Shown one piece after another: positions 2,071 through 62,604 of a DNA stretch of 64,000 nt (position 1 is the first letter of the stretch; each line of letters begins with the position of its first letter). Both the position numbers and the translations under genes were made by a program. Source of the stretch: Octopus vulgaris (lineage: Eukaryota); NCBI GenBank assembly GCA_951406725.2, contig OX597828.1, forward strand, positions 45,136,001 to 45,200,000, in the 5' to 3' direction. The notes below the pieces were generated by a model. The model did not search any database. It was not told where the DNA came from and saw only the letters and a list, made by a program, of their open reading frames with translations.

Positions 2071-2091
2071 CGAATTGACATTCTGCGTATT
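2071..2091 (-). CDS. Candidate 21-nt microexon of an unidentified minus-strand gene
   Basis: Minus strand reads actttctcctgcatttcag|AATACGCAGAATGTCAATTCG|gtgagc. Length is 3n and all frames are open (NTQNVNS / EYAECQF / IRRMSI). TGC lies in the pyrimidine tract; TGCATG (2055-2060) and ACTAAC (2032-2037) lie just downstream. Confidence 0.7.
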
Positions 2092-3239
2092 CTGAAATGC
2101 AGGAGAAAGTTTTCAGTTACTAACAATGTGTGAAGCATGTAGTGTGCAAAAAAAGGGGTTCTTTAGGGTGAAATAGGGTGCAGTAAGATTTTGCAGGGTA
2201 AAATACATGAGATTTAGTCAATATTTAATTTTTAGATAATGTTTATTTGGTGTCAAGAGTAAGAGTAGAGAAGGGGCGGAGCATTAATTTTTGTTGTAAA
2301 TGAAAATGTTGTAAAGAAAAGGCAGCTGTTACATAAATATTGATGATATATGCATGTGTATGAATGTGTGTGTGTGTGTGTGTGTGTGTGTGTGTGTGTG
2401 TACAATTGCAATATCAGAAATACAAATGCAAACAGTTATGTTTGTGTATATATGCATGTATGTTCATATATATATATATATCTTTACATACATACATGTA
2501 TATATATATATTTTTTTTTTATATAAGTGTATATATGTATATATGTTTATATATGTATATATGTATATACATACATATATCATCATCATCATCATCATCA
2601 TCGTTTAACGTCCGTTCTCCATGCTAGCATAGGTTTATATATATATATATATATGAATGTGTGTATATACATACATATATATATACAAATATACATATAC
2701 ATACATACATCTATACATACACACACACACATATATATACATATATATATATATATATATATATATATATACATATACACACATATATATATATATTTGT
2801 AGGCATGTAGGTAGACACACAGACAATCAGGCTTGTAGATAAACTGATCAGTAAACAGACAAATAGCTAAACAGACAGATAGATGAAGAAAGAGAGAGAA
2901 AGAGAGAGAGAGAGAGAGAGAGAGAGAGCGAGAGAGAGAGAGAGAGAGAGAGTTATTGAGAATTTCTTAATCAAACGAACATGGTAAGACCACTTCGAAT
3001 AAATCACACATTGTATAAAAATCTGATTGTGCATGTTTCAATTAAACAGCGAATCCAACAAAAGGCCATTGCTTTTTTGTTTGAGAACATGTCAAAGAAC
3101 AAGAGTAAAATATAAAGAAATAAATGAAGAAAAAGAGAAATATGGAGAAATGACAGATAAATGGAAAAAAAATATTCTAAACAAATCATAGAGAAATACT
3201 TGTTAAAATAGTGACATAGAAACATTCTATATACATATA

Positions 3240-3648
3240 GGCGCAGGAGTGGCTGTGTGGTAAGTAGCTTGCTAACCAACCACATGGTTCCGGGTTCAGT
3301 CCCACTGTGTGGCATCTTGGGCAAGTGTCTTCTGCTATAGCCCCGGGCCGACCAATGCCTTGTGAGTGGATTTGGTAGACGGAAACTGAAAGAAGCCCGT
3401 CGTATATATGTATATATATATATATATGTGTGTGTGTGTTTGTGTGTTTGTGTTTGTCCCCCTAGCATTGCTTGACAACCGATGCTGGTGCGTTTACGTC
3501 CCCGTAACTTAGCGGTTCGGCAAAAGAGACCGATAGAATAAGTACTGGGCTTACAAAGAATAAGTCCCGGGGTCGATTTGCTCGACTAAAAGCGGTGCCC
3601 CAGCATGGCCGCAGTCAACTGACTGAAACAAGTAAAAGAGTAAAAGAG
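3240..3648 (+). mobile_element. Full-length SINE family A (tRNA-like head, internal TA/TG microsatellite, gtaaaaga tail)
   Basis: Head ggcgcaggagtggctgtgtggtaag...ggttccgggttcagtccc has A/B-box-like motifs; near-identical copies occur at 13201, 18111, 25710, 27471 and 59696. Confidence 0.9.
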
Positions 3649-3658
3649 TATATGTGCT

Positions 3659-3914
3659 TATAAATACAGTGTACATTTAAACACATTAGAGGCGTCCATC
3701 AAAGGACTCCTTGCACGCTAGAGAGAACAGTTAAATTCCAACCTTCTATTAGGGATAAAATTTCGAAGGAAATGAAAAATAAAAACATTTACCATCTCCA
3801 TGCCCTTCGAAATTTTATCTCTAATAGTGGTCTGGAATTTAACTGTCCTTTCTAGCGTGCAAGGAGTCCTATGATGGATGCTTCTTATGTGTTTAAATGT
3901 ACACTGTATTTATA
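3659..3914. repeat. Imperfect inverted repeat, arms ~111 bp
   Basis: 3659-3769 is the reverse complement of 3804-3914 with scattered mismatches (e.g. tataaatacagtgtacatttaaacaca / tgtgtttaaatgtacactgtatttata). Confidence 0.9.
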
Positions 3915-4481
3915 TGAATAATATATAGTCTGTTGACTAAAGTTTTACACGCTAGCCCACTGGTAATGGACATTTCTAATATTTCTGATTACCCTTTGAT
4001 ATTATACATATGTGCATATATACATTAGGTATATATAAATATAAAGTTTAAATGGAGTGCTGTTAAAGGTAAAATGTCATTATCACCATCGTTGTCATCA
4101 TCATCAACCTTTTGATCATCATCATCTCTATGTGTGTGTGTATATATTATATAGATATATTTACAGAATGATTTGACAGGAAAAATAGCATCAACCATTT
4201 CAACATATTTTATATAATATATATATTCACATACACGGATGCAAACACATATTTATACATGTTTGTATGTGCATATCTATGTATATGTGTATATGTATGT
4301 AAGCATGTATGAGTGTGTGTATGTATATATTTATATATATATATATATATATGTATATAAATTAGAGAAGAACCACCGCGTAGCATCACTTATCTAAGAA
4401 AATTTTTCCCTGTAAGTTTGGAATCATATTCCCTAATATTATTATTATTATAAGTTTTATATATATATATAAATATATCAT

Positions 4482-4952
4482 AATCATCATCATCATCATC
4501 GTTTAACGTCCATTTTCCATGCTAGCATGGGTTGGATGGTTCGACCAGGGTCTGCGAAGCCAGGAGGCTGCGCCAGGCTCTAGTCTGATCTGGCAGTGTT
4601 TCTACAGCTGGATGCCCTTCGTAACGCCAACCACTCAGTGAGTGTAGTGGGTGCTTTTTATGTGCCACCGGAACAGGGGCCAGAGGAGGCTGGCAACACA
4701 GCCATGATCGGTCGGTGCTTTTTACATGACACCAACATGGACACCAGTCAGGCGGCGCTGGCATCATCCACGTTCAGATGGTGCTTTTTACGTTCCACCG
4801 GCACGGGTATCATAATTACAATTTCCATTTGATTTTTATTTTGATGTTGACGTACTTGACTCAATAGGTCTCTTCAAGCACAGCGGGTCACCCTACAATC
4901 CAAGGTTAGCACAGCAGACTGTCCTGCAAGCCATGAACTCCCTTCATTTGTC
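4482..4952 (-). mobile_element. 5'-truncated RTE LINE 3' end with (GAT)n tail
   Basis: Reverse complement matches the 3' end of the RT-bearing element at 33710-35645. Confidence 0.85.
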
Positions 4953-4961
4953 AGGTACTCT

Positions 4962-59695: not shown

Positions 59696-60083
59696 GGTGC
59701 AGGAGTGGCTGTGTGGTAAGTAGCTTGCTTACCAACCATATGGTTCTGGGTTCAGTCCAACTGCATGGCACCTTGGGCAAGTGTTTTCTACTATAGCTTT
59801 GAGCTTTGTGAATGGATTTGGTAGACAGAAACTGAAAGAAGCCTGTCGTATATATGTATATGAGTGTGTTTGTGTCTGTGTTTTGTCCCCCACCCCACAA
59901 TATCGCTTGACAACCGATGCTGGTGTGTTTACGTCCCCGTAACTTAGCAGTTCGGTAAAAGAGACCAATAGAATAAGTACTAGGCTTACAAAGAATAAGT
60001 GCTGGGGTCAATTTCCTCGACTAAAGGTGGTGCTCCAGCATGGCCACTGTCAAATGACTGAAACAAGTTAAAGTTTTAAAGAG
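59696..60083 (+). mobile_element. SINE family A, full length
   Basis: Matches 3240-3648. Confidence 0.88.
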
Positions 60084-60475
60084 TATATATAAATATATAT
60101 ATATATATATAGATAGATAGATAGACAGACATATAATTGTTTATAGTATCTTTATAACTATAACAAACATTTTTAATCCTTATTTCTATACTCTTATTGC
60201 TTGCTCTCACAGGATATTTCTGAATATGATGAATTTTTATTAGAAATTATTTTTTTCCTTTTGGACTCCTCAAAATGTTTGAATTGTTCTACTTGAACCT
60301 ATATTTTTCTCACATATCTATACATATATACATTCATACATACACACAACAGCACACACACACACACACACACACACACACACACACATAGATATATATG
60401 TATATATGTGTGTGTGCGTGTGTGTGTGTGTATATATATGTGTGTGTATGTGTGTGTGTGTCTGTTAATATATGT

Positions 60476-60720
60476 GGAGGCGTGTGGCTTAGTGGTTAGG
60501 GTGTCAGCATTATGATTGTAAGATTGTGGTTTCGATTCCTGTACCAGGTGACGCATTGTGTTCTTGAGCAAAACACTTCATTTCATGTTGCTCCAATCCA
60601 CTCAGCTGGCAAAAATGAGTAATGCTGCAATGGACTGGCGACCCATCCAGCTGGGGTACACACAGACGCCATAGAAACCGGGTCCATGAGCCTGGCTAGG
60701 CTTTAAAAGGGTGCATTTAT
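60476..60720 (+). mobile_element. SINE family E-like
   Basis: ggaggcgtgtggcttagtggttagggtgtcagc...ggtttcgattcc...ttgctccaatccactcagctg. Confidence 0.8.
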
Positions 60721-62149
60721 TTATTATTATGTTTATGTATATTGGGCTCATTTTGGTTTTTGTTTATCAGCTCCATTCACAAAAATCTTATCAACCCAGG
60801 GCTATAGTAGAAGACATTTGCTCAAGGGGCTGCATAGCAGGGTTGAACCTGATGCTACATGGCTGAAAAGCAAGCTTCTTACATGCATAGCTACACCTGT
60901 AAATATGAGGAAGTGAAAAATTTTATAACAATAGACAAAATAACAAGAATTTGCAGATTGTGTACCAGACACACATGCACACACACAAAAACACACACAC
61001 ACGCACACACACACACACACACACACACACACACATGTGTATATACACATTTATACAGGTGCATCCATAAACATGTGTATGTGTGTGTGTGTGTGTGTGT
61101 GTATATATATATATATATATATATATATGCATATTTACACATATATATATGTTTGTGTATGCATACATGTATGTGCGTATATATATACATATACATATAT
61201 ATATATGTACATACACACACACATATATATATACATAAATATATATACAATATATGTATGTGTATATACATATATACGCACAAACACACACAGATATATA
61301 TATGCATATGTATGTATACAAGCACATATATAGACGCACATGTATATATGTGCATATCTACCTATATATATATATATATATATATATATATATATATATG
61401 AGCTGGTCAAGTGTTCTTTGAATATTGGGAGAAAATGAGATGGTCTTTGCTGAAATGTATTTGATCATAGTTCTCATTGATCTTGAGTTGACCTGGGGTT
61501 AAATAATTATACAGACTGAAAAAAATTGTAGCCAAAAATGCGGATATGTAAATAAAAATGTGGAAGGATAAACATAGAAAGATATAAAGCAAACACACAC
61601 ACACACACACACACACATGCACACACATATATATTCTGACAGATATATACATTATTGCATACATAGCTAATATCCACACACATATATATACATAATCACA
61701 AACATATATATATATATATATATAATCACAAACACACTCACACATGCATACACACGCACACACACACACACACACACACACACACACACACACACACACA
61801 CAGAATCTCAACTACACTGAAAATTATTGAGAAAAAATGCTGAAGAAAAACACAAGTGTAGATATACAATTACATTCATAATACGCATGTATGTTTAAAC
61901 GCACTAGACATACTTGTGCATACAGAGACACATATATGCACATACGTATACGTACATATATGTATATATATATATATTTGTGTGTAGTATATATGTGTGT
62001 GAGTGTGTGTATATGTATATATTGTGTGTGTATATATATATATATATATATATATATATATATATATATATATATATATATATATATATATATATATATA
62101 TATATATATATATATATATGTATATATATATATATATATAATATATATA

Positions 62150-62520
62150 TATAGATAGATAGATAGATAGATAGATAGATAGATAGATAGATAGAGAAAC
62201 AAAGCACTTAGATAGATTGATTGATTGATAGATAGATAGATAGATAGATAGATAGGTAGATAGGTAGGTAGATAGATAGATAGATAGATAGATAGATAGA
62301 TAGATAGAGAAACAAAGCACTTAGATAGATTGATAGATAGATAGATAGATAGATAGATAGATAGATAGATAGATAGATAGATAGATAGATAGATAGATAG
62401 ATAGATAGATAGATAGATAGATAGATAGATAGATAGATAGATAGATGGATAGATAGATAGACAGACGAACAGACAGATAGATAGATGATTGGATTGAGAG
62501 ATAGAGAAACAAAGCACTCA
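62150..62520 (+). repeat. (GATA)n array with a higher-order spacer gagaaacaaagcact repeated three times
   Basis: Spacer at ~62194, ~62307 and ~62504. Confidence 0.9.
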
Positions 62521-62539
62521 GTGAAATGCAGATACTTAC

Positions 62540-62604
62540 TTATGAAATCAAACACAAAGATACAAATTTGAAAATATCAAAGGATGTTGTTTTGAAGAAG
62601 ATTT
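62540..62604 (-). CDS. Candidate 65-nt stop-containing exon (phase 1: [21 protein letters not shown])
   Basis: ttttcctgttgtttattctggttcttcacag|AAATCT...TCATAA|gtaagt; both splice sites are strong; stops occur in all three frames. Confidence 0.5.

Follow-up and report, generated by a model that had tools for sequence, protein, structure and literature searches.

A 64,000-nt stretch of the 2.8-Gb Octopus vulgaris genome (contig OX597828.1, here C15, positions 45136001-45200000; "the window" below, with its own positions counted from 1) raises the question of which short, splice-site-flanked segments on its minus strand are exons, and of what gene. An earlier note had proposed nine such segments and two acceptor-only sites as an array of microexons and alternative last exons in one large gene. 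All nine segments are indeed preceded by AG and followed by GT, and 7/9 have a length divisible by three (3n), but only three of the eleven sites could be confirmed as real. These three, named after their peptides MLQ, MNQ and NTQNVNS, are present in spliced RNA. We consider the window probably to be an intronic part of an NCKX gene, in which the three microexons are the first of likely seven frame-preserving exons of 9-21 nt at the start of the cytosolic loop, whose inclusion or skipping would vary a short linker beside a predicted phospho-regulatory motif.

The evidence for the three exons comes from RNA contigs of four runs (24 runs were listed), which were compared with the 3′ end of the exon encoding the first alpha-repeat (alpha-1 exon). 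Contigs of three runs from three studies (X1, X9 and X10) follow this exon exactly to its donor and then continue beyond it. Their 30-letter loose ends, matched by eye to exon sequences, correspond in 30/30 letters to MLQ, MNQ and the first 12 nt of NTQNVNS; the fourth run (X2) gave only an unspliced contig at a depth of 6.4. Each exon is at most 27 nt long, lies between AG and GT, and is retained in spliced RNA. Three introns of 204,003, 10,146 and 45,061 nt are removed. The first runs from the alpha-1 exon (C15:45397320, outside the window) and occupies 57317..64000 with its 3′ end, followed on the same minus strand by the 9-nt phase-0 microexon MLQ (57308..57316), the second intron (47162..57307), the 9-nt phase-0 microexon MNQ (47153..47161), the third intron (2092..47152) and the 21-nt phase-0 microexon NTQNVNS (2071..2091), whose whole peptide is found in the annotated protein CAI9733922.1. 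The start of the next intron, leading to further short exons, takes up 1..2070, as placed by tblastn and peptide mapping. Contigs represent majority paths and drop rare forms, so that the RNA shows the presence of three exons and not the absence of others. Among shorter octopus transcript fragments, one of seven candidates was obtained, and it represented intron read-through. MLQ and MNQ begin and end alike and have the same type of donor, perhaps as products of an old duplication. The NTQNVNS exon holds an internal CAG after 9 nt, a possible second acceptor.

To place these exons in a gene, 200 kb of flanking DNA was added on either side of the window. A profile search found PF01699 (alpha-repeat) matches at C15:45397410-45397814 and C15:45029357-45029500, both on the minus strand and on opposite sides of the window. 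The host gene thus spans ~370 kb of the minus strand, with the alpha-1 repeat encoded 197 kb upstream of the window and the other large exons found by tblastn in order from 45052035 to about 45028000; the window lies within the 345,284 nt that separate the alpha-1 exon from the next large exon. This agrees with the expectation of one large minus-strand gene with its big exons elsewhere. Two PF01699 halves with a large loop between them are the architecture of NCKX/SLC24 proteins, and among the 120 matches listed the named homologues are NCKX or Nckx30C, the rest being unnamed exchangers, mostly at 70-78% identity. TIGR00927 is the best NCBIfam model for 3/3 proteins, although all score below its 710-bit cut-off (658 for the full-length P0005). 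The alpha-2 motif region, in which an aspartate confers K+ dependence on NCKX (PMC4232491, in the part consulted), is identical to that of elephant-shark NCKX2. Judged by these sequence comparisons, the host gene is an NCKX-type (SLC24) exchanger, closer to NCKX than to NCX, NCLX or CAX. We presume that Asp575 falls within the identical alpha-2 region. The donor of the alpha-1 exon follows NLIE in phase 0, as the phase-0 reading of the segments requires; the alternative phase-1 reading (DAT, DES, EYAECQF) is therefore out. This exon is cut by a run of 100 N (L022:7817-7916) that may be an assembly gap, and residues 1-127 of the exchanger found no match in the O. vulgaris genome.

Downstream of the window, the string appears to go on with four exons of 12-15 nt, all on the minus strand and flanked by AG and GT. 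They are NKSQ (C15:45096659), matching a relative's NKAQ; TLAVK (C15:45079117), present in CAI9733922.1 and in an older O. bimaculoides model; RDLK (C15:45069895), present in the latter; and QPEIK or PEIK (C15:45054513/510), which has a tandem acceptor and appears as QPEIK in CAI9733922.1. The next large exon, KPVR, was located by tblastn at C15:45052035. The annotated peptides map in order to their AG..GT-flanked places in O. vulgaris. Before KPVR, CAI9733922.1 (O. vulgaris) reads Q, NTQNVNS, TLAVK and QPEIK, and the older O. bimaculoides model TLAVK and RDLK; this difference in short exons suggests alternative use. Seven exons over 345 kb are thus likely: three shown by RNA, two found in O. 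vulgaris annotation (TLAVK and QPEIK) and two predicted (NKSQ and RDLK). Each of the seven is 3n and has an open phase-0 frame, and the introns along the string measure 204, 10, 45, 41, 18, 9, 15 and 2.5 kb. As had been anticipated for microexons, gene models break here: records of O. vulgaris start inside the cluster or beyond it, those covering the C-terminus in O. sinensis and in current O. bimaculoides start beyond it, and the N-terminal record of O. bimaculoides has a tail that in O. vulgaris is intron sequence with stops. The full exchanger is absent from the records of all three species that we examined, which makes the locus one for gene-model repair.

Comparison with a second coleoid suggests that the string has a nearly fixed and a variable part. 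A cluster of 13 proteins, 10 of them full-length Logan members, is 88% identical to octopus in the alpha-1 exon; it includes CAE1330758.1, presumably a cuttlefish record. MLQ, MNQ and NKAQ are present in 10/10 full-length proteins. They are followed by five combinations (n = 10): GDVK with SEIK (3), SEIK alone (3), none (2), GTVK with SEIK (1), and a 26-aa segment with GTVK and SEIK (1), whereas NTQNVNS is absent from all 10 isoforms. The claim of a combinatorially spliced region therefore held for the downstream members, as seen in this relative, but not for MLQ and MNQ, which look near-constitutive.

Across 68 proteins of other animals, mostly gene models and five of them without an anchor, the stretch that carries the beads (as we call the peptides of the short exons) measures 39-42 residues in 11 sequences from chiton, abalone, limpet, pearl oyster and Gigantopelta, and 48 in Plakobranchus, against 51-85 in coleoids (41 without beads). 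Unrelated alternative segments are found at the bead site in nemertean, ticks, mosquitoes and ants, and because of these the site is, as far as such alignments go, an old splicing hot spot. The microexon string itself may be a coleoid gain, an idea that stays suggestive since gene models are prone to miss microexons. In the NCKX of Gigantopelta (P0051, P0097, P0136 and P0137), alternative segments rich in His occur one exon beyond the bead site, where vertebrate NCKX2 has its own alternative segment.

A separate observation concerns RNA recoding. At alignment columns 152, 213, 282, 294 and 383 (A1), spliced transcripts of the relative differ from its unspliced or genome-derived members by K/R (7/10), K/E, R/G (7/10), I/V (9/10) and K/E, the I/V site lying two codons before the alpha-1 donor. 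All differences fit A-to-G, so RNA recoding beside the microexon string is likely in the relative. Octopus contigs over L022:7320-7620 showed no letter differences, which speaks against majority editing there.

The surroundings of the seven exons offer some indication of how such small exons could be recognised. Their AG-free zones measure 64, 81, 26, 195, 185, 97 and 1154 nt, six of the seven being at least 64 nt, as compared with 21-29% of a matched background that reaches 60 nt (P 0.0005-0.003). TCTC occurs 13, 8, 3, 22, 5, 2 and 1 times per 200 nt, against 0.9 in the background, and YGCY occurs 13 times at TLAVK and 11 times at QPEIK, against 1.6. The 1,154-nt zone before QPEIK (L034, C15:45054513) is built of TTC/TCC repeats together with a repeat of CCTGCTG type that contains 27 YGCY, and TLAVK likewise has a CTG-rich tract; MBNL/CELF-type control of these two exons is possible. 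Taken together, the motifs resemble, but do not prove, the eMIC code (SRRM3/4, Srrm234) as set out in the consulted part of PMC8797185. The string is like that programme in its 3n exons of at most 27 nt, its ion-transport target, its UC-rich tracts and its long AG-free zones, although such zones are not confined to these exons. It differs from that programme in that UGC is not enriched in octopus, the flanking introns are huge (those of fly targets are short), and seven exons stand in a row.

How might the string work? The beads would lie after transmembrane segment 5 (TM5) and before a conserved R-x-x-S-x-P / QLMIHT segment. In the proposed arrangement, MLQ and MNQ would be a nearly invariant core, and the variable part would consist of the downstream beads, with NKSQ and RDLK as real exons in O. 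vulgaris. Exon definition would govern inclusion, with help from extended acceptor zones that are free of AG and rich in UC, as eMIC/SRRM-type targets have them. The beads would determine how far apart TM5 and the R-x-x-S-x-P segment lie, or what local helix forms between them. Close behind the beads follows an R-S-C-S-L-P motif, which we take to fit a 14-3-3/basophilic-kinase consensus. The form R-x(1-2)-S-x-P occurs in 9/9 lophotrochozoan rows and in 13/23 of the rows printed, and is absent from the insect and crustacean rows. A fold model predicts, with low confidence, that the end of the alpha-1 exon forms a helix together with MLQ and MNQ and that coil comes next; no NCKX was among nine PDB matches.

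By analogy with known exchangers, the choice of beads may tune regulation or trafficking, and not ion selectivity. The analogy draws on the consulted portions of three papers: cassette exons in the NCX1 loop tune regulation (PMC9820601), an endocytosis motif in a removable loop segment of NCKX2 affects trafficking (PMC3576620), and the NCKX4 loop holds a calmodulin/PKC site (PMC7949085). Like the octopus string, the six small exons A-F of NCX1/NCX3 (SLC8) form a combinable cluster in the big cytosolic loop of an exchanger, and their stepwise addition tunes regulation; unlike it, they encode part of the folded CBD2 domain, whereas the octopus beads belong to SLC24, follow TM5 in a loop without such a domain, and come from 9-21-nt exons spread over 345 kb (PMC9820601, same portion). 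NCKX2, NCKX4 and Drosophila Nckx30C are of the same family and share alternative splicing in the central loop, which carries kinase, calmodulin and AP-2 sites (PMC3576620, PMC7949085 and PMC2151195, as far as consulted). According to these sources, what varies there is one segment, of 19 aa in NCKX4, where octopus has a string of microexons. The NCKX2 segment with its tyrosine motif follows QLMI-x-T-x-DPL, one exon beyond the octopus cluster. Fly Nckx30C exons appear in table S2 of PMC8797185 with 75 and 177 nt, classed as ASE and LowPSI. Beyond exchangers, the micro-exon genes of Schistosoma encode secreted proteins built almost wholly of microexons, tiny symmetric exons that are spliced in combinations. 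The runs of tiny symmetric exons are alike, but the octopus beads add 10-45 residues to a conserved transporter.

Several findings weigh against a regulatory bead string. Neither MLQ nor MNQ is skipped in any of the relative's 10 transcripts or in the 3/3 spliced octopus contigs, which would drop rare forms. The loose ends reach 30 letters only, and NKSQ and RDLK are without RNA support in O. vulgaris. AG-free zones of at least 60 nt also precede three of six unsupported candidates and three of six ordinary exons, and UGC lies within 35 nt of the acceptor in 5/7 cases, not enriched over the 47% of the background (P 0.18). The relative's 26-aa segment has no match in octopus (best score 28, to a simple repeat). 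Finally, pLDDT is below 50 over most of residues 272-346, which leaves the fold model uninformative for the loop.

Some of these points would suit a different explanation, namely a tolerant, disordered spacer: the three exons would be genuine, but the string would have arisen by drift, as short exons gained in giant introns at an old hot spot, and their inclusion would have little effect. The unrelated segments that nemertean, tick, mosquito and ant proteins have at this site, the lack of NTQNVNS in the relative and the low confidence of the fold model are all compatible with it. Nevertheless, the peptides and order of MLQ and MNQ are identical in octopus and a coleoid that is only 88% alike in the alpha-1 exon, all seven exons keep the frame, and segments that recur at a single site may also point to selection (10.64898/2026.09.05.749416, consulted in part). 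We regard such a spacer as possible but unlikely.

The regulatory string of three window exons and four further ones has also to be set against the earlier note's full model, in which most or all of the nine segments and both last exons would be used, though in isoforms that are rare or limited to certain tissues, and some would act as poison exons. The six other segments were judged indirectly, through the junctions leaving the alpha-1 donor, and they and both acceptor-only sites are passed over in 3/3 spliced contigs. The 65-nt candidate (62540..62604) is not 3n and has a phase-0 stop, and could only be a poison exon; it is single-copy and preceded by a 216-nt AG-free zone. The 18-nt candidate KKGNGE (40260..40277), with an open frame, a strong donor and a weak acceptor in single-copy sequence, is absent from the relative's isoforms and might be a rare cassette. 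The other four are unsupported. The 51-nt candidate (49683..49733) lies mostly within a dispersed repeat, the 14-nt candidate (44041..44054) shifts the frame like the 65-nt one, has a weak donor and a microsatellite as its acceptor tract, and the 63-nt candidate (42009..42071) carries a phase-0 stop within a dispersed repeat. The 48-nt candidate (38715..38762) takes its donor and 3′ half from the end of a dispersed repeat (all six on the minus strand). This MITE-like element end, at 38660-38741, supplies the false donor, and its copies elsewhere in the genome are often inverted pairs ~100-300 nt apart. Both acceptor-only sites (29649 and 9005) do consist of a YAG after a pyrimidine tract, but have no support as last exons.

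A genome-wide copy search, which covered the 51-, 63-, 48-, 65- and 18-nt candidates and MNQ, found at least about 40 copies of each repeat overlapping the 51-nt and 63-nt candidates and the donor half of the 48-nt one. The neighbourhoods of the 65-nt candidate, the 18-nt candidate and MNQ matched only themselves; the supposed islands of unique sequence fail for the three repeat-overlapping candidates. The suspicion that some members are pseudo-exons was well founded, three overlapping repeats and three breaking the frame or carrying stops. As a class, the candidates do not exceed the plus-strand background, a check set beforehand. With a crude splice-site matrix made for this analysis, segments of 6-70 nt scoring at least 4 numbered 54 on the plus and 40 on the minus strand of the window (a second count was similar), and those 3n and open numbered seven on each. 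Only the 3n open class of at most 27 nt is richer on the minus strand, with 5 against 2 in the window and, over the 345-kb span at rising thresholds, 24/15, 13/6, 7/3 and 3/0 (minus/plus), an excess of roughly what the real exons contribute. The splice score by itself failed as a filter, giving low values to acceptors of the string (-8.1 for RDLK, 0.0 for TLAVK) and not separating the two strands.

In favour of the full model it can be said that contigs show majority paths only, that nonsense-mediated decay would deplete poison exons, and that two candidates, of 65 and 18 nt, lie in single-copy sequence and each have one good splice site; yet with every candidate skipped in the spliced contigs, none found in the relative's 10 isoforms, three derived from repeats and the strands on a par, we hold it to be very improbable. 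Equally improbable is that the microexons are chiefly stepping stones for very long introns, their 3′ ends doubling as recursive (zero-length) splice sites: introns of up to 204 kb, AG/GT ends after pyrimidine tracts and an AG directly before the GT in 6/7 exons would fit, but AG/GT is also ordinary donor consensus, the exons are retained in mature RNA, and strict ratchet-like sites number one per strand in 345 kb and leave the 204-kb intron undivided.

The microexons in the NCKX gene show directly that exons of only 9 nt can be recognised after an intron of 204 kb and have been retained among coleoids. They lend themselves to testing how microexons are defined inside giant introns full of repeats, and whether cephalopods expanded the neural microexon programme together with RNA editing. 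A bolder version seems doubtful to us: a linker of at least seven exons of 3-7 residues over a third of a megabase, its combinations differing between neuron types and tied to A-to-I recoding just before the first donor, would form a splice-plus-edit code that tunes calcium clearance through the 14-3-3/kinase site. Short exons in the loops of calcium exchangers are a known theme. The octopus string appears undescribed: literature searches on microexons in cephalopods and octopus, on NCKX in squid and on NCKX and Nckx30C splicing turned up no account of the cluster, although the supplementary O. bimaculoides tissue splicing tables of 10.64898/2026.09.05.749416 may list its exons.

Some further features of the locus are of note. 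Part of the KPVR exon, with its donor, is repeated in tandem 1.2 kb downstream (C15:45050831-45050739); this copy lacks the 5′ part and has an in-frame stop. Other exchanger genes on C5, C6 and C12 have alpha-repeat matches that are likewise 150-320 kb apart. The window itself is ~27% simple repeat, and its open reading frames consist of simple repeats and retroelement pieces, with no long cellular exon among them. Retroelement fragments lie at 34309-34911 (+), 10094-10558 (+), 21343-22010 (-), 30887-31138 (+) and 43353-43667 (-). Two of seven open reading frames scanned gave RVT_1 and weak zf-RVT matches, and the remaining ones we take to be pieces of non-long-terminal-repeat reverse transcriptases and GIY-YIG domains.

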